From Rickettsiales bacterium (GTDB lineage: Bacteria; Pseudomonadota; Alphaproteobacteria; Rickettsiales; SXRF01): a DNA stretch of 64,000 bases. The notes beneath the pieces were generated by a model, which had not been told where the DNA came from, did no database searches, and saw only the letters and a program-made list of their open reading frames with translations. Below are positions 10,346 through 54,980 of this stretch, in pieces. The translations under genes and the position numbers were made by a program. The stretch is taken from positions 203 to 64,202 of the forward strand of contig JAOAUZ010000005.1 in the NCBI GenBank assembly GCA_025464625.1, given 5' to 3'. Position 1 is the first letter of the stretch. Every line of letters begins with the position of its first letter.

Positions 10346-10420
10346 ATAATTTCCAAGTTAGAATTGTCATCGAATGGAAAGTGTATAGTAGCATCATTCA
10401 TTTAATAAATAAATAAAACA

Positions 10421-10439
10421 AAAATCCCACATGTGGATT
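10421..10439. promoter_or_regulatory. candidate operator, copy 1 (aaaatcCCACATGTGGatt)
   Basis: Contains the perfect 10-bp palindrome CCACATGTGG. An identical 19-mer repeats 40 bp downstream, in the divergent pdxH/sdhC intergenic region. Confidence 0.4.
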
Positions 10440-10460
10440 AGCTATATTTTGTTTAAGAAT

Positions 10461-10479
10461 AAAATCCCACATGTGGATT
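10461..10479. promoter_or_regulatory. candidate operator, copy 2 (aaaatcCCACATGTGGatt)
   Basis: Identical 19-mer, about 85 bp upstream of the sdhC ATG. Confidence 0.4.
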
Positions 10480-10563
10480 TTATGTTGTTTATTTTTTTAT
10501 GGATTATTTGCATGGCTGGGGTATATAAGAATACAAGTTTTTTTAATTTGATTGGAATAGGTT

Positions 10564-15055: not shown

Positions 15056-15691
15056 TTAATACGCAACTGGCACTGGGTCAAGCGAACGCCACAAATACCA
15101 TGTGGCAACGGAGCGATAGGGTTTCCATCTTTGGCTTAACTCAAATATTTCTGCTAGAGTCATTTTTTGTTCATTATTATAATGGCGGAAAATGGCTTTT
15201 TGTAAGCCAATATCAGCAAGGGGCAGAATATCAGGGCGGGCAAGGTAAAAAATCATGAACATTTCTGCCGTCCAGCGACCAATACCGTTAAGAGATGTAA
15301 GTTCGCTTATTATTTCGTCATCAGATAAATTATTCCAGTTTTTTATATGTGCTTTGTTTTCTATAAAATGTTCGGCAAGACCATGTAGGTAACGCACTTT
15401 TTGCGCAGAAAGACCGCATTCGCGTAAGGCTGTTTCGTTGGTTTTTATTGCGGATTTTGGAGTCACTTCACCAAGCTGATTTTCAAGCCTTTTCCACACC
15501 GTATCAGCAGCTTTCACCGATATTTGTTGCCCGATTATCGAACGCGCCAATGTGTAAAAAGCATCGCCACGCACAGTTAGAATTTCACCATGATAATGAC
15601 TAATTATTTTACCCAATATCTTATCGTTGGTGAGGATGTGCGATTTTGCATCGTTCCAGTAATGTGGGTGCATAAAATTCCTTATTGTCAT
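15056..15691 (-). CDS. DNA-3-methyladenine glycosylase II family (HhH-GPD)
   Basis: HhH 'LNGIGRWTAEMFMIF' followed by 'PDILPLADIGL' (catalytic Asp region). The ATG at 15691 lies inside repeat B; an alternative ATG is at 15673. Confidence 0.8.
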   Translation of the reverse strand: MTIRNFMHPHYWNDAKSHILTNDKILGKIISHYHGEILTVRGDAFYTLARSIIGQQISVKAADTVWKRLENQLGEVTPKSAIKTNETALRECGLSAQKVRYLHGLAEHFIENKAHIKNWNNLSDDEIISELTSLNGIGRWTAEMFMIFYLARPDILPLADIGLQKAIFRHYNNEQKMTLAEIFELSQRWKPYRSVATWYLWRSLDPVPVAY

Positions 15692-15763
15692 TTCGAGTAT
15701 AGCGAGAAATCTTTGCGATTGATTTAATATTGCAAAGATCCCTCGACTAAGCTCGGGATGACA
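15686..15763. repeat. GTCAT double-hairpin palindromic element, copy B (GAG..CGA-loop subtype)
   Basis: tgtc-atttcgag-tatag-cgagaaat-ctttgc / gcaaag-atccctcg-actaag-ctcgggat-gaca. Abuts the pheT stop codon (15764). Confidence 0.85.
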
Positions 15764-25882: not shown

Positions 25883-27802
25883 GTGAGCGATACACCATTA
25901 CTTGATAGCGTGATTTATCCGAGTGACACTCGGGCATTTTCTGATGCACAGCTGGTGCAGCTTGCGGATGAGCTGCGTGCGGAAACTATTTCTGCTGTAT
26001 CACAAACTGGAGGGCATCTTGGAGCTGGTCTTGGTGTTGTGGAGCTTACCGTTGCTCTGCATCATGTTTTCAATACACCTGAAGATATAGTTATATGGGA
26101 TGTTGGGCATCAATCGTATCCGCATAAAATTCTTACAGGTAGGCGCGATAAAATCCGTACATTGCGTAAACCAGAAGGACTTTCTGGATTTTGCAAGCGT
26201 GCTGAGAGTGATTATGATGCGTTTGGCGCAGGGCATAGCTCAACTTCAATTTCTGCCGCTCTGGGGATGGCGGTGGCGCGGGATTTGGAAGGAAAAAAAC
26301 ATGAAGTGATTGCCGTCATCGGCGATGGGGCGATGAGTGCGGGAATGGCTTTTGAGGCACTGAATAATGCTGGGAGTATTGGCACGCGCCTGATAGTAAT
26401 CCTCAATGATAATGATATGTCAATTGCCCGACCAGTTGGAGCAATGAGTACATATCTGGCGCGATTAATTTCTTCTCACCCATATCACACATTACGTCAT
26501 ATGGCGAAAGTTGTTGCCAGTAAATTTCCTGAGCCGCTGATGCGTTTTGCGCGCAGAGCAGAACATTTGGCGCGTGATATAGCCGTTGGGGGAACGCTTT
26601 TTGAACAGCTTGGTTTTTATTATGTAGGACCTGTTGATGGGCATGATTTGACGCATTTATTGCCAGTTTTGCGTAATATAAAAAATGAAAAAAATAGTGG
26701 TCCGATTCTGTTGCATGTGGTGACGCGTAAGGGGCATGGTTATGCACCTGCTGAAGAGTCTGATGATAAATATCATGGTGTAAATAGTTTTGACGTAACA
26801 ACAGGAACGCAGAAAAAATCAGCAGCAAGCGCGCCAAGCTACACAAAAATTTTTGCAGAAAGTTTAATTGCGGAAGCAAAAAAAGATGAAAAAATTGTGG
26901 CGATTACTGCCGCCATGCCTTCTGGCACTGGTCTTGATTTATTTGCCAAAGAATTTCCTGAGCGTATGTTTGATGTTGGGATTGCTGAGCAACATGCAGT
27001 GACTTTTGCTGCTGGTCTTGCAACACAAGGATACAAACCGTTTTGTGCTATTTATTCAACTTTTTTGCAACGTGGTTATGACCAAGTGGTGCATGACGTT
27101 GCGATTCAAAATCTGCCAGTGCGTTTTGCTATTGATCGTGCTGGTTTGGTGGGTGCTGATGGGCCAACTCACGCAGGCAGTTTTGATATTGCCTATCTCG
27201 CCAGCCTTCCCAATTTTGTTGTGATGGCAGCAAGCGATGAGGCGGAATTAGTACACATGGTGGCGACATCTGCTGCGATTGATAATGCGCCCAGTGCTGT
27301 GCGTTATCCGCGCGGAGAAGGTGTTGGAGTTACGCTTCCTGAAATTGGCGTTCCACTTGCCATTGGTAAGGGAAGAATTGTCCGTGAAGTTTCAGGCGCG
27401 AAAGTTGCTTTGCTATCGCTTGGAACACGCCTTACAGAATGTATGAAAGCAGCAGATGTTTTGTTAGAAAAAGGAATAAAAACTACCGTTGCTGATGCTC
27501 GTTTTGCCAAACCAATTGATGAAGAATTAATAGGGAATTTGTTAAAAAGCCATGAGCTGCTGGTAACGGTGGAAGAAGGCGCAATTGGCGGATTTGGTTC
27601 GCATGTACTTCAGTTTGCAACTGATAATAATCTTGTTAATGATAAGCATAAAATTATAGCTATGTGTTTGCCTGATGTATTTATTGAGCAGAATGTTCCG
27701 CAAACCATGTATGATATTGCAGGGCTAAATGCTCCGCAAATAGTAGAAAAAGTGTTGCAAGCAGGAATTTCTGCGGAAAAACCAGCGAGAAAATCTGCTT
27801 GA
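25883..27802 (+). CDS. dxs: 1-deoxy-D-xylulose-5-phosphate synthase
   Basis: GTG start; '[18 protein letters not shown]', '[18 protein letters not shown]', '[16 protein letters not shown]'; 639 aa. Confidence 0.96.
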
Positions 27803-27813
27803 GAGGATTAATT

Positions 27814-28041
27814 ATGAGTTTTATAGAGAATGGTAATAAAGTTGCACAGTTTATAGCTGATACAGCAGCGTTTTTAGGTGCGTTATTGTACATTTTTTCA
27901 ATTATATTAGCTTTGGTTGGATGTGATGGTATTTGTACAGGAACGGATCTCGATGCTTGGATGCCAGCGTTTTTTTTCTTTCCTATAGGGATGCCACTTG
28001 TTGTCAGGTTAATTAAAAGGCTAAAGTCTAAAATGATATGA
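27814..28041 (+). CDS. small hypothetical membrane protein
   Basis: ATG 27814 is preceded by gagagga. Two hydrophobic segments. The stop overlaps the next start (ATGA). Confidence 0.45.
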   Translation: MSFIENGNKVAQFIADTAAFLGALLYIFSIILALVGCDGICTGTDLDAWMPAFFFFPIGMPLVVRLIKRLKSKMI

Positions 28042-28958
28042 TTTCCGTTACTGGCAACAAGCTCACATTCTCAGGAAAAGACTATCATTGCGCTATTGGA
28101 AAAAATGGTTTTTCTGCTGATAAAAAAGAAGGCGATGGCTGCACACCACTTGGAATTTTTTCACTGCGTGAATTGTGGTATCGCGCGGATAAAATCGAAA
28201 AACCAAAAACTAATTTACCAATAAAAATTATTCATGAAAATGATGGTTGGTGTGATGATGTTTCTTCGTCTGATTATAATAGGCATATTCTTCTCCCTCT
28301 CCCTTTGGGAGAGGGTAGGGGTGAGGGCGATTATGTATATTCTCCACAAGAATTAATAGAATATGCGCGTGCATTAAGAAAGGAATCTACATCTCCAGAA
28401 ATTAAGTTGTGGTCTATATTACGCAACCGTCAGATGAATGGGCTAAAATTTCGTAGGCAGCATCCTGTAGAAAAATATATCGCTGATTTTTATTGTGATG
28501 AATTGCGCCTTATTATTGAATTGGACGGTGAGTCACATTTTACAACTGAAGGAAAAGTTAGTGATGCTGTGCGTAGTAAGTTTCTACAAGAAAAAGGCTA
28601 TAAAATAATTAGGTTTTCTAATGAGGAGATTGGAGAAAGTCTTGAAGCTGTAATACAGAGTATCTACGCCATCACAGAAGAAAAAGCCCTCACCCCTGCC
28701 CTCTCCCAAGGGGAGAGGGAGAAGATACAAATTCCAAGACACGAAAAACTATGGCGTGATGACGATGTTTACGATCTGATTATTCCCATTGGCTATAATG
28801 ATTCGCCAGTTATTTCTGGCAAAGGTAGTGCCATTTTCATACATATTGCCCGTGATAATTATGAACCAACCGAAGGTTGTGTGGCGTTGAAATTACAAGA
28901 TTTACTGGAAATATTGCTGCTGTGTTCAAACGAGACAGTAATTGAGATAAACGACTAG
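28038..28958 (+). CDS. L,D-transpeptidase family protein carrying an in-frame DUF559 endonuclease-domain insertion (residues 85-229)
   Basis: Host parts: 'YHCAIGKNGF..KEGDGCTPLGIF' and 'GSAIFIHIARDNYEPTEGCVAL' (YkuD His/Cys motif). Inserted part: 'ARALRKESTSPEIKLWSILRNRQMNGLKFRRQHPVEKYIADFYCDELRLIIELDGESH'. Confidence 0.8.
   Translation: MISVTGNKLTFSGKDYHCAIGKNGFSADKKEGDGCTPLGIFSLRELWYRADKIEKPKTNLPIKIIHENDGWCDDVSSSDYNRHILLPLPLGEGRGEGDYVYSPQELIEYARALRKESTSPEIKLWSILRNRQMNGLKFRRQHPVEKYIADFYCDELRLIIELDGESHFTTEGKVSDAVRSKFLQEKGYKIIRFSNEEIGESLEAVIQSIYAITEEKALTPALSQGEREKIQIPRHEKLWRDDDVYDLIIPIGYNDSPVISGKGSAIFIHIARDNYEPTEGCVALKLQDLLEILLLCSNETVIEIND
28290..28724 (+). mobile_element. DUF559 (Vsr-like endonuclease) module bounded by 39-bp hairpin-bearing inverted repeats
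   Basis: Left IR 28290-28328 matches the reverse complement of right IR 28686-28724 at 37/39 positions. Each IR contains ccctctccc-NNN-gggagaggg. Total 435 bp. A related ORF-less doublet is at 50269-50354. Confidence 0.65.
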
Positions 28959-41047: not shown

Positions 41048-41121
41048 TGGGGGATCTTCTAATGGTAGGAAAGCGGACTCTGACTCCGTCAATCTAGGTT
41101 CGAGTCCTAGTCCCCCAGCCA
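41048..41121 (+). tRNA. tRNA-Gln (anticodon CUG)
   Basis: Manual cloverleaf: acceptor tggggga/tccccca, D arm ttc-taatggtag-gaa, anticodon arm gcgga-ctCTGac-tccgt, T arm ctagg-ttcgagt-cctag, discriminator g, encoded CCA. 74 nt. Confidence 0.85.
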
Positions 41122-41157
41122 TTCATAAGAGGGCATAAAGCCCTCTTATGAATGGCT
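41117..41157 (+). other. 18-bp perfect hairpin that includes the tRNA 3' end (agccattcataagagggc-ataaa-gccctcttatgaatggct)
   Basis: Read directly from the sequence. No T-run follows, so it is not a canonical intrinsic terminator. Confidence 0.7.
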
Positions 41158-41175
41158 GGGTTATTAGTTTGTGAG

Positions 41176-43756: not shown

Positions 43757-43765
43757 TCTACGTTT

Positions 43766-43840
43766 TGTCATTTCGAGTGCAACGAGAAATCTTTGCTTTG
43801 TAAAAACTGAAAAGATACCTCGGCTACGCTCGGTATGACA
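43766..43840. repeat. GTCAT double-hairpin palindromic element, copy C (GAG..CGA-loop subtype)
   Basis: tgtc-atttcgag-tgcaa-cgagaaat-ctttgc ... aaaag-atacctcg-gctacg-ctcggtat-gaca. Lies 10 bp after the M48 stop and upstream of sdhB. Confidence 0.85.
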
Positions 43841-50159: not shown

Positions 50160-50268
50160 ATTCTACTAGTCTTTGCTGCAAGTAACCGTTCCCTGCGCTT
50201 CCGCTAAAGCCTAGCAAATTTCATTGCTTCGCGCTTTTTTGCCAAAATTAGTTTAGGTAAAATTCTTT

Positions 50269-50354
50269 CTTCTCCCTCTCCCTCTGGGAGAGGGTGGGGT
50301 GAGGGCAGTAAAAAGAAAGCCCTCATCCTAACTTTCTCCCAGAGGGAGAGGGGA
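50269..50354. repeat. ORF-less doublet of the DUF559-element inverted repeats (12-bp spacer)
   Basis: cttctccctctccctctgggagagggtggggtgagggc-agtaaaaagaaa-gccctcatcctaactttctcccagagggagagggga. The left arm nearly equals IR 28290-28328. Confidence 0.75.
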
Positions 50355-50359
50355 CTTGG

Positions 50360-50436
50360 TGTCATCACCGCGCAGGCGGTGATCTCTATTTATTGTTGTG
50401 TTCGACGAAGAGATTCCTGCCTACGCAGGAATGACA
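50360..50436. repeat. GTCAT double-hairpin palindromic element, copy D (GC-stem subtype)
   Basis: tgtcat-caccgc-gcag-gcggtg-atctct ... agagat-tcctgc-ctac-gcagga-atgaca. Confidence 0.8.
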
Positions 50437-50478
50437 AAGTGGAAGGTGTTTCAGGAAAATATCGGACTAAGGATTAGA

Positions 50479-53243: not shown

Positions 53244-54980
53244 CTACTGTGAAATAGCATTTATCACAGTTTCTTCACTTAATATCTGTGGTAACACTGT
53301 CGGCTCTCCGCCACCTGCTGGATAGAATACATTAAGTGGTACACCATTATAGCCAAACTTGCGCAGAAATTCTGTTATTTCTGGATTTTTACTAGTCCAA
53401 TCTGCAACCATTAAAGTTACATTATTATCTTTGAACGCTTGCTGGGTACGTTTTGTATCCAGTGCTATTTTCTTATTTAATTGACAGGTGATGCACCATG
53501 CAGCAGTGGCATCAACATAAACGGCTTTTCCTTCAGCGCGTAACTCAGCAAGTGCTGCTCTAGAAAAGGAAGTTGATTGTGATTCTTGAGTCTCATTTTT
53601 TCCCAGTACAAAAATTATAGCAGCGAGCATCACAGCGGTGGCAAAGATGGTGAAAATACGGTGTAACAAATTGCACTGTGCATTCATGCGCTGTAGCCAG
53701 ATTATAAAGGTTATCAGCAGTAAACCGCAGAGTATAAGCGCAACGCCGTCAGCTCCTGTTTGTTTGCCTAGAACCCAGATTAGCCAGATAACAGAAGCAT
53801 ACATAGGGAAGGCAAGCAGTTCTTTGAAACGCTCCATCCATGCCCCTTGTTTGGGAAGAAAGCGCAGCAGGCTGGGGAAAATGCTGATTAGCAAAAACGG
53901 CAAAGCCAGCCCAAAACCAAGTGAAAGAAAAACTAGCATTGCTGCCCAAGCAGGCAAGGTAAGTGCTGCCCCAACAGCCGATGCCATGAACGGTGCGGTG
54001 CAAGGTGTGGCAACTAAAGTGGCGAGTATTCCTGTAAGGAAGCTGCCACGCAGGGTGTTTTCATTGAGATTATTACCAACTCCACCAAGCACTACAGGCA
54101 GATGAAATAATCCAGACAGGTTAAGTCCAACGAGGAATAATAAATATATCAAAAAGCCAATAAAGGTGGGTGACTGCATCTGAAAACCCCAGCCGATAGC
54201 TTCCCCACCTTGTTGCAGTGCTATAAGGACGCTGGCAATGACCGCGAATGAAGCTAGTATTCCAACTGTATATGCTACCCCATATTTTGCCGTATGGGCG
54301 CGGGCGTGACCAGATTTTTTGACTAGCGCAAAGGTCTTTAGAGATAAAACAGGAAGTACGCAAGGCATGACATTTAGTATAAGCCCACCGAGCAGAGCCA
54401 GTGCGAGGGTAATAATAAGGGAAAGTGGAGTAACATCAGGTGTGGGTATTTTTTGCTGTGTAAATAATGATGCTTCTGGTGATGGAGAAACATCGCCAAC
54501 TGGCAATTCTATATTCAGAGTTTGTGATTCGGGAATACATATTTCGTTACACGCCAGCCACTCAGCATTCACTGTAAAACTATATGATTTATCATGCAAT
54601 TTTTTTGGCACGGTTATGGTGACGGGAAGCAGTGTTTCACCAGTATAGCCATAAGTTGTTAGGTAGCCTTCGGCAAATTTTGTTGGCTCTGGCCAGTCTA
54701 TTTCACCAGCAGAAAAACCATTAGGAAGCTGCCATTTTAATTTGGTGGGAAGCCCTGCGTCGCCAGAGTTTTTATGGTAAGTATGCCAACCATCAGGTGC
54801 ATTAAGAAGAACGCCAAGCCTTATATTTTTTCCTTCTGCAATCGCAGAAGATTCACTGATAAGCGTTGCCTGTACGTTGTTTTTTGCATAGGCAGGATAA
54901 ACAAAAACACACAGCAGCGCTATAATTGCTACTGCTTGCAGAAACAGACGATAAGGCAATGACAAATTTGAATTGGTCAT
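53244..54980 (-). CDS. dsbD: thiol:disulfide interchange protein DsbD
   Basis: 'NVMPCVLPVLSLK', 'ATPCTAPFM', C-terminal thioredoxin 'AAWCITCQ'; 578 aa. Confidence 0.9.
   Translation of the reverse strand: MTNSNLSLPYRLFLQAVAIIALLCVFVYPAYAKNNVQATLISESSAIAEGKNIRLGVLLNAPDGWHTYHKNSGDAGLPTKLKWQLPNGFSAGEIDWPEPTKFAEGYLTTYGYTGETLLPVTITVPKKLHDKSYSFTVNAEWLACNEICIPESQTLNIELPVGDVSPSPEASLFTQQKIPTPDVTPLSLIITLALALLGGLILNVMPCVLPVLSLKTFALVKKSGHARAHTAKYGVAYTVGILASFAVIASVLIALQQGGEAIGWGFQMQSPTFIGFLIYLLFLVGLNLSGLFHLPVVLGGVGNNLNENTLRGSFLTGILATLVATPCTAPFMASAVGAALTLPAWAAMLVFLSLGFGLALPFLLISIFPSLLRFLPKQGAWMERFKELLAFPMYASVIWLIWVLGKQTGADGVALILCGLLLITFIIWLQRMNAQCNLLHRIFTIFATAVMLAAIIFVLGKNETQESQSTSFSRAALAELRAEGKAVYVDATAAWCITCQLNKKIALDTKRTQQAFKDNNVTLMVADWTSKNPEITEFLRKFGYNGVPLNVFYPAGGGEPTVLPQILSEETVINAISQ

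Follow-up and report, generated by a model that had tools for sequence, protein, structure and literature searches.

An open reading frame (ORF) at positions 28038-28958 of a 64,000-nt stretch of Rickettsiales DNA (contig JAOAUZ010000005.1; the whole stretch is called the window below) encodes a YkuD-type L,D-transpeptidase that carries, in one continuous frame, a DUF559 nuclease domain bounded by inverted repeats. The features of the locus are as follows.

28038..28958, + strand: whole fusion ORF of 306 aa, a YkuD L,D-transpeptidase with an in-frame cassette (ORF list, translation and Pfam)
28038..28288, + strand: N-terminal half of the transpeptidase, residues 1-84 (YkuD profile 20-83; aligns with intact homologues)
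28289..28328, + strand: left repeat of the BoxC/PIT/TM type in (+) orientation, an inverted-repeat arm to which the published consensus was fitted exactly; hairpin 28295-28315, G-rich third block 28319-28327, translation LLPLPLGEGRGEG
28329..28685, + strand: coding core of the DUF559 (Vsr-like, PD-(D/E)XK) nuclease (Pfam match to residues 106-212, about nt 28353-28673)
28686..28725, - strand: right repeat of the BoxC/PIT/TM type in (-) orientation (inverted-repeat arm, motif match); hairpin 28699-28719, translation of the + strand ALTPALSQGEREK
28726..28958, + strand: C-terminal half of the transpeptidase, residues ~230-306 (YkuD profile 82-146), with the catalytic His and Cys (FIHIA, TEGCVAL)

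Pfam assigned residues 106-212 of the 306-aa protein to DUF559 (PF04480; E = 7.4e-36, 122.8 bits against a cut-off of 20.6) and matched YkuD as two stretches around it; an exact-protein look-up of the fusion matched no record. An inverted-repeat search placed the arms at 28289-28328 and 28686-28725, where they are 95% complementary over 40 nt. Each contains an exact 9-bp stem with a 3-nt loop, CCCTCTCCC-NNN-GGGAGAGGG, at 28295-28315 and 28699-28719, respectively. The left arm reads CCCTCTCCC TTT GGGAGAGGG TAG GGGTGAGGG, and the right arm is its reverse complement with one or two changes. Fold prediction gave energies of -9.9 and -9.8 kcal/mol for the two hairpins, and the hairpin pattern occurs four times in the 64-kb window versus never in 100 shuffles.

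An earlier note on this DNA had described a YkuD ORF with DUF559 inside it, 39-bp inverted repeats that each bear a 9-bp stem and 3-nt loop, a length of 435 bp from repeat to repeat, and a nuclease core preceded by no in-frame ATG. The 306-aa ORF is as quoted and Pfam agrees with it; the stem and loop are exact in both arms; and 28290-28724 indeed amounts to 435 bp, or 145 codons. The repeats are real but slightly longer than described, at 40 nt. Between the left repeat and the DUF559 core there is neither an in-frame ATG nor a GTG; a TTG at 28305, which lies within the hairpin, is the sole alternative start in frame. The insert is confirmed as a real in-frame cassette within the transpeptidase gene, with only minor corrections of coordinates.

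Judged by their sequence, the flanking repeats are the published BoxC/PIT/TM intrastrand-triplex motif (TM): the arms fit its consensus CCCTCNCCC-N3-6-GGGNGAGGG-N3-GGGNGAGGG exactly, with the layout of a pyrimidine arm, a loop, a purine arm, a 3-nt loop and a G-rich third block. The motif is known from more than 260 genomes, including Escherichia coli K-12 with 23 copies, five of them as inverted pairs; it has been reported as always intergenic, with no transposase or integrase remnants ever found nearby, and its sites have been tied to local instability without a mobility gene (Holder et al., NAR 2015, PMC4666352). Formation of an intramolecular triplex was demonstrated for E. coli copies by circular dichroism and nuclear magnetic resonance; the demonstration concerns those copies, and for the window repeats only the hairpin part is predicted. 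The published copies were reported to lie between genes, whereas the arms at 28289-28328 and 28686-28725 fall within a gene, are translated as part of it and enclose a nuclease ORF. The other two copies in the window are intergenic and have the layout of the five E. coli K-12 pairs:

50267..50354, no strand assigned: ORF-less inverted TM doublet (BoxC-type palindrome) between convergent genes, made up of TM(+) 50267-50306, a 12-nt spacer 50307-50318 and a degenerate TM(-) 50319-50354

This doublet, already reported in the earlier note as an ORF-less copy of the same repeats, is predicted to fold as a single long stem (-32.2 kcal/mol, z = -7.1). Its spacer was compared with the inner ends of the cassette as a possible sign of either a deletion derivative or an empty target, and the comparison was set aside: both are A-rich, and the similarity is not significant. 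The doublet adjoins another palindromic element at 50355-50445, which has three hairpins (-18.6 kcal/mol, z = -4.2) and is unrelated to TM in sequence.

A scan of reference genomes returned exact TM matches at at least 120 loci in many phyla. The matches listed come from Pseudomonas, Enterobacteriaceae, Xanthomonas, Variovorax, Planctomycetota, Chloroflexota, Myxococcota, Verrucomicrobiota, Acidobacteriota, Bacteroidota and others, and among them DUF559 lies near 1 of 120 TM loci; the repeat is therefore far commoner than the nuclease. The repeats thus recur elsewhere, with four hairpins in the window besides these loci, and ORF-less copies far outnumber the nuclease-bearing ones. At the gathering threshold, Rfam placed no family at the TM sites of five TM-bearing loci, its only matches there being unrelated C4 antisense RNAs in a Pseudomonas crudilactis locus (L009). 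That locus also holds, at 421-756, three TM copies in the same orientation, in tandem and ~151 bp apart, unlike the inverted pairs. The TM repeat is free of stop codons in five of its six frames and encodes peptides rich in Pro, Gly, Ser, Glu and Arg, which is why read-through is so often possible. This weakens the earlier argument that frame compatibility on both sides of the insert would arise by chance in only about 1/9 of cases.

The cassette is a discrete unit that has entered many unrelated sites. Free-standing TM-DUF559-TM cassettes measure 422-492 bp, and the overall length is ~420-490 bp. One cassette of ~480 bp recurs with 72-86% identity at L158, L159, L164, L196, L204 and the group L183, L201, L203 and L205. 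Among these loci, which cover at least five contexts with unrelated flanks, similarity starts and ends exactly at the outer TM edges. Within a cassette, both TM repeats point their G-rich third block inward. The earlier suggestion of a discrete, hairpin-ended unit is borne out, and units of this kind recur in numerous genomes and settings.

The association between the repeat and the nuclease was measured at 80 metagenomic DUF559 loci chosen solely by the core peptide pattern xGxKFRRQH; because no other property was used, the selection was blind to the repeat. A strict TM lies within 200 bp of the DUF559 ORF at 22 of the 80 loci, and on both sides at 7. The strict pattern missed a sequence variant, and under the looser definition then applied the counts rose to 60/80 and 42/80. 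Near the DUF559 ORF, loose TMs occur at 4.2 per kb; farther out in the flanks of these loci the density falls to 0.28 per kb, which amounts to an enrichment of about 15-fold at the ORF ends. The dominant orientation is that of the window, with TM(+) upstream and TM(-) downstream of DUF559. Spacing from the DUF559 ends is tight (~20-120 bp), and both the enrichment and the fixed orientation hold across phyla. Many homologues of ~50% identity start with PLPLGEGRGEG and end with LTPALSQRERE, which are the translated repeats. DUF559 is the only ORF found here between inverted TM pairs; an apparent alternative cargo at L128 was rejected, as the pair there merely flanks ordinary tandem genes.

A decayed version of the TM-DUF559 arrangement occurs in E. 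coli K-12: the C-terminus of YcjD runs into a degenerate TM hairpin, and 170 bp further downstream, ahead of fabI, there is a perfect BoxC copy. The gene is accessory: of 5,426 complete E. coli genomes, 3,377 have its region. Between ycjD and BoxC, K-12 also carries a partial duplicate of the ycjD 3' end (L129, 1351039-1351828). A clean empty ycjD site was sought in the ycjD-negative strain FDAARGOS_497 (L210) and rejected: its sapF-fabI interval holds an unrelated efflux-pump island after sapF, and is for that reason uninformative on the ends of the cassette.

In-frame residence within other proteins was surveyed by an exhaustive profile search, which returned 58,432 DUF559 relatives at E <= 0.001; the best 150 representatives were examined, and a domain was scored as embedded when at least 70 aa of a larger protein lay on each side of it. 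Embedded domains account for 41 of the best 150 of the 58,432, mostly in restriction-modification (R-M) proteins, and TM-type peptides are found at one boundary in 36/41 and at both in 30/41. Among the 64 representatives that are not free-standing, HsdS is the host in 24 and other R-M enzymes or DNA methylases in about 12. Hosts seen in single cases are a class I (leucyl-type) tRNA synthetase, Maf, NUDIX, ThiE, CobT, Ham1, FtsJ, a RecG-like helicase and another YkuD protein, which holds a cassette at the same loop. In one MmeI/Eco57I-like enzyme (P0242) there are two cassettes, which share only 43% identity. Embedding in frame is common for the cassette, and among the proteins listed (P0246-P0369) R-M genes are strongly favoured as hosts. 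Tandem multi-DUF559 proteins (P0241, P0243-P0245) were rejected as evidence of TM-targeted insertion, having no TM peptides and a different architecture.

Tolerance of the cassette in frame was verified on the DNA itself in three hosts, YkuD, Maf and HsdS, which upholds the earlier comparison with Rickettsia palindromic elements (RPEs). In the Maf case, from a Planctomycetaceae metagenome-assembled genome (MAG), the host halves cover positions 1-105 and 122-186 of the Maf profile; the TM DNA is near-identical to that of the window, and the DUF559 is only 46% identical. The hsdS cassette sits between the central conserved region and the second recognition domain. In L130 and L133, the cassette and the conserved hsdS region are 98.7% identical, and the recognition domains are different.

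Removal of the cassette in silico leaves a 161-aa protein that matched 860 homologues. The best of these are ~165 aa long and uninterrupted, and align over 98-100% of the query at up to 83% identity, a contiguous fit to L,D-transpeptidases. The earlier claim that removal restores a transpeptidase holds in that the two halves are contiguous on the YkuD profile (positions 20-83 and 82-146) and intact homologues align in full. The junction is imperfect, however: the excised loop (HI-IQIPRHEKLW, the hyphen marking the junction) is two residues shorter than the ancestral consensus HIKLPYNFSHEKLW and also differs in sequence. The catalytic residues in the C-terminal half, H269 and C281, are invariant in the alignments, and orthologous loci share the synteny dxs-LDT-ahcY-histidine kinase, where LDT is the L,D-transpeptidase gene.

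A MAFFT alignment that combined the fusion with transpeptidases and free DUF559 proteins proved to be misaligned and was dropped in favour of two separate AlphaFold (AF2) predictions. In the model of the fusion, the transpeptidase halves are assembled (predicted local distance difference test score, pLDDT, 95-98) and DUF559 stands apart as its own domain; the segments encoded by the repeats (residues 88-101 and 218-231) have pLDDT <50 and are predicted to be disordered. The DUF559 module modelled alone from a deep alignment has a core pLDDT of 94-97. Structure prediction is thus in agreement with DUF559 folding as a domain of its own in a surface loop that leaves the host fold intact. In these models the in-frame cassette becomes a nuclease domain on flexible linkers; the tether would be flexible because TM, stop-free in five of six frames, encodes peptides predicted to be disordered.

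The loop is a general hot spot, since other orthologues bear unrelated short in-frame inserts or repeat doublets of the same type there. At the equivalent of ~28290, the proteins P0017, P0007, P0003 and P0031 have at least three unrelated inserts, including those of the SLR..RSNP and HPALVAGSG..PRNKCGVT types. A PIN-domain toxin with small upstream ORFs lies between dxs and the transpeptidase gene in L001 (4767-6014), an insertion that the window and L006 lack. Upstream, a small ORF at 27799-28041 (80 aa, with a hydrophobic segment) overlaps the start of the transpeptidase gene by 4 nt, and some relatives (P0005, P0013) have the two as one fused protein, which bears on where the transpeptidase, and with it the nuclease, is located. 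The 306-aa fusion itself has no evident signal peptide. A supposed uninterrupted paralogue at 54697-54722 was rejected as a chance match within the gene of an unrelated membrane protein.

The history of the window copy was read from orthologous loci. The insertion occupies the identical transpeptidase site in two independent assemblies, L003 (whose contig ends inside the insert) and L005, and the fusion is therefore not an assembly artefact. Among these three copies, the ratio of nonsynonymous to synonymous substitution rates (dN/dS) of DUF559 is 0.14-0.27 at a dS of 0.8-1.4, that of the host N-terminal half is 0.08-0.22, and the amino-acid divergence comparison gives 67-70% for DUF559 versus 65-70% for the host. 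Low dN/dS together with similar divergence places the nuclease under purifying selection, co-diverged with its host. Selection also extends to the repeat DNA: the TM arms are 87-95% identical in nucleotide sequence (the left arm 87-95% versus L003 and L005, the right arm 87% versus L005) versus ~73% in their surroundings, and synonymous sites next to the left TM are saturated among the three. The excess identity of the arms therefore reflects constraint on the DNA itself, or concerted evolution.

Decay and loss are also seen. The L005 copy has one in-frame TGA inside DUF559; in L001, L007 and several other orthologues the cassette is reduced to short stubs; and most orthologues, the closest included, have no insert and keep the ancestral loop. 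Among the orthologues compared, none has DUF559 without TM repeats. A neighbour-joining tree of the flanks, which carries no support values, puts each of the three full copies in a different subclade beside ancestral-loop alleles, and all eight TM-bearing alleles share a PRHE(K/N)LW right junction. The sister genomes L001, which has a stub, and L006 share 93-100% identity through ahcY. Within the transpeptidase gene they are 90-95% identical over the 3' half versus only 72-85% over the 5' half, with the breakpoint of this recombination mosaic at the loop. On these comparisons, the window copy is old and largely vertically inherited and did not arrive by a recent hop. The pattern fits an old element that has been lost, has decayed and has been moved between alleles by recombination; homing driven by the nuclease is unproven. 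Homing endonuclease genes follow a homing cycle, which such patterns of loss, decay and recombination resemble.

The closest solved structure to the nuclease is 3HRL (NGO0050, an uncharacterised Neisseria protein), with a sequence E-value of 4.5e-17 and a Foldseek target TM-score (a structural similarity score, distinct from the repeat) of 0.87. The second closest is the catalytic domain of I-Bth0305I (3R3P), with E = 8.5e-5 and a target TM-score of 0.74 by Foldseek and a weak sequence match (E = 0.03); PvuRts1I/AbaSI and E. coli Vsr (1VSR) matched lower. The predicted catalytic residues D150, E161, D163, H167 and D176 are all present, in columns that are invariant or nearly so in 56 homologues. 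The window domain thus shares the Vsr-like fold and the conserved acidic and His residues of DUF559/YcjD/NGO0050 proteins, and differs from them in being embedded in another protein and bounded by repeats. The superfamily survey of this nuclease clade states 'No HGT observed' (horizontal gene transfer) and lists no repeat association.

Four known systems resemble parts of this arrangement. I-Bth0305I is a proven homing endonuclease and the prototype of the Vsr-like EDxHD homing family; it has an N-terminal NUMOD/helix-turn-helix (HTH) DNA-binding region and resides in a self-splicing intron or split intein (PMC3239194; 'fractured genes', PMC2677866). The window module has the same catalytic fold, is probably likewise the nuclease of a selfish element, and shows the same patchy occurrence in host genes. 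It is, in contrast, only ~120 aa long, with ~20 residues before the core and no NUMOD/HTH region detected by Pfam, and it sits in neither intron nor intein: it has repeat termini and a continuous frame and is kept in the mature protein. Inteins are likewise in-frame, nuclease-containing insertions, sporadically distributed, in host proteins that include essential ones, but Pfam detected no Hint/splicing domain in the cassette, whose boundaries are DNA repeats encoding Pro/Gly-rich peptides and not splice-junction residues.

The other two systems are built on short palindromes. REP/RAYT (REPIN) systems, said to have been described by Nunvar in 2010 and by Bertels and Rainey in 2011, consist of repetitive extragenic palindromes (REPs) and REP-associated tyrosine transposases (RAYTs). 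RAYTs are Y1 HUH transposases of the IS200/IS605 type. The parallel with them drawn in the earlier note stands for the architecture, a single enzyme gene between inverted copies of a short palindromic repeat whose ORF-less copies are far more abundant. It does not extend to the enzyme, which is a Vsr-like nuclease: Pfam finds only DUF559 and related nuclease families and no Y1 HUH transposase. REPs are moreover extragenic, whereas cassettes of the window type also lie in frame in genes. RPEs, reportedly described by Ogata and co-workers in 2000, are in-frame palindromic repeats in protein-coding genes. They share with the window cassette their in-frame palindromes, their tolerance in surface loops and an alphaproteobacterial lineage, the relatives of the window being annotated as Rickettsiales MAGs; unlike the cassette, which carries a nuclease ORF and a repeat common to many phyla, they encode no enzyme and are lineage-restricted.

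On balance, we favour reading the feature as a BoxC/TM-bounded DUF559 cassette, that is, a small, discrete and probably selfish unit in which a Vsr-like ORF lies between an inverted TM pair. From the sequence comparisons we infer that the DUF559 nuclease is the driver of its movement. The nuclease would recognise TM DNA, or its hairpin, cruciform or triplex form, and nick or cut there; the break would be repaired by copying a cassette-bearing template, with the conserved TM arms serving as homology. TM doublets and solo TMs elsewhere would be converted in this way, a homing-like spread into a dispersed repeat, and orthologous alleles could be converted as well, together with their flanks. Within needed genes, only in-frame insertions would survive. 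A repeat search showed that the inverted TM pair also holds a 21-bp direct repeat, because each TM hairpin is palindromic; recombination across it would delete 404 bp including the ORF, and the solo hairpin left behind would account for the stubs in relatives.

Several observations weigh against a mobile, nuclease-driven cassette. No consistent target-site duplication or target motif was found across at least eight cassettes. The transpeptidase site may have a 3-bp ATA duplication. Compared with classical insertion sequences and miniature inverted-repeat transposable elements (DDE-type), the cassette has the inverted repeats and, across at least eight cassettes, no consistent target-site duplication of fixed length. 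Depending on the definition, about a quarter to nearly three quarters of the sampled DUF559 loci have no recognisable TM. DUF559 and the host halves are equally diverged across the three fusion lineages, which fits plain vertical descent with no sign of recent transfer. The window nuclease can only act as part of the fusion, or from the improbable TTG in the hairpin, and if the transpeptidase is exported, it would hold the nuclease domain away from DNA. The high HsdS count may represent a few old insertions spread by shuffling of recognition domains and not many events. Full cassettes cannot yield TM doublets by simple repeat recombination, leaving the doublet as either a derivative or a target.

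The main alternative, itself unlikely, is that TM spreads by other means (template switching, repair of structure-provoked breaks or an enzyme acting in trans) with DUF559 as its cargo, which might persist as an addiction, defence or repair module. The 119 of 120 TM loci without a nearby DUF559 among the matches listed speak for it, as do the local instability that Holder et al. connect with TM in the absence of a mobility gene, the missing target-site duplications at the cassettes compared, and the preponderance of R-M genes among the hosts, which hints at a role related to defence over one in transposition. Against it, DUF559 is the sole ORF found here between inverted TM pairs (the one other pair examined with a long interior, at L128, flanks ordinary genes); TM is enriched in fixed orientation at ~20-120 bp from DUF559 ends across phyla; and TM DNA is near-identical where DUF559 is ~46% identical. 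This exclusivity, spacing and conservation of TM point to a specific protein-DNA relationship, as a random passenger would be less exclusive. That DUF559 in this lineage now serves the host as a working part of the transpeptidase, or of a protein with two functions, and is kept for the benefit of the host with its mobile past no longer of consequence, seems to us improbable. The frame is preserved in three diverged lineages, the DUF559 dN/dS equals that of the host halves with which it co-diverged, the nuclease has no start codon of its own and both folds are intact in the AF2 models. Against this, the insert is absent from most orthologues, including the closest, where the loop is ancestral; one fusion is interrupted by an in-frame stop within DUF559, and several lineages retain stubs. 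Nor is it evident what a DNA nuclease would do in peptidoglycan cross-linking. If the frame alone were selected, the selection would stem from the catalytic C-terminal half of the host, but the low dN/dS would then be left without explanation.

Another account has two TM repeats inserted separately around a DUF559 domain already fused to the transpeptidase; in its favour, TM and other small repeats do enter the same loop in other orthologues. This account is nearly refuted: relative to intact homologues the insertion boundary is set by the outer TM edges and not by the edges of DUF559, no orthologue has DUF559 without TM, and the same three-part unit is found in the same orientation in unrelated genes, with homology ending at the TM edges. 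Least credible of all is a chimeric contig or a read-through ORF. Gene callers may over-extend ORFs through TM because it is stop-free in most frames, but here Pfam-verified host halves lie on both sides in one frame, and the same structure recurs in three independent assemblies with the synteny dxs-LDT-ahcY conserved.

A wider and more tentative possibility, to which we give less credence than to the selfish cassette itself, is that DUF559/YcjD-type nucleases are the missing partners of BoxC/TM. They would form a REP/RAYT-like system of many phyla, composed of autonomous cassettes and non-autonomous repeats, with repeat-templated copying triggered by the nuclease and cassette ends translated as flexible linkers, a non-splicing counterpart of inteins especially in R-M subunits. 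Such a system, if real, could also seed the DUF559 domain fusions of many proteins.

BoxC/PIT/TM has been known since the 1990s from hundreds of genomes including E. coli K-12, with its origin, spread and function unexplained, and DUF559 is a very large family without an assigned function. The cassette offers a first candidate partner gene for the repeat, and the link gives the repeat and the family a hypothesis each that can be tested in a model organism, since ycjD lies beside BoxC copies in E. coli K-12. Neither the repeat nor the domain family is new, nor are the general ideas behind REP/RAYT, RPEs, homing endonucleases and inteins. Literature searches that paired DUF559 with inverted repeats, or that covered BoxC, YcjD and the intrastrand triplex, found no description of the association; nor were the BoxC/TM-DUF559 link, the cassette as a unit or its widespread in-frame residence found in the literature searched. 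The findings run against the published statements on TM (always intergenic; no mobility function) and against 'No HGT observed'. A nuclease cassette is carried in frame, and without splicing, inside dozens of protein families, above all in type I R-M specificity subunits, which is of relevance to genome annotation (fusion proteins and over-extended ORFs at TM), to the origin of domain insertions and possibly to R-M evolution.

Other repeats were noted in the window. A 32-nt hairpin-type repeat (TTGTCATTTCGAGT....CGAGAAATCTTTGC) at 15685-15716 and 43765-43796, with copies 91% identical, probably belongs to another dispersed family. A near-perfect palindrome at 41107-41167, with 28-nt arms that are 89% complementary, extends over the 3' end of tRNA-Gln (41048-41121), and a 40-nt tandem pair at 10414-10493 has the palindrome AAATCCCACATGTGGATT in each unit.

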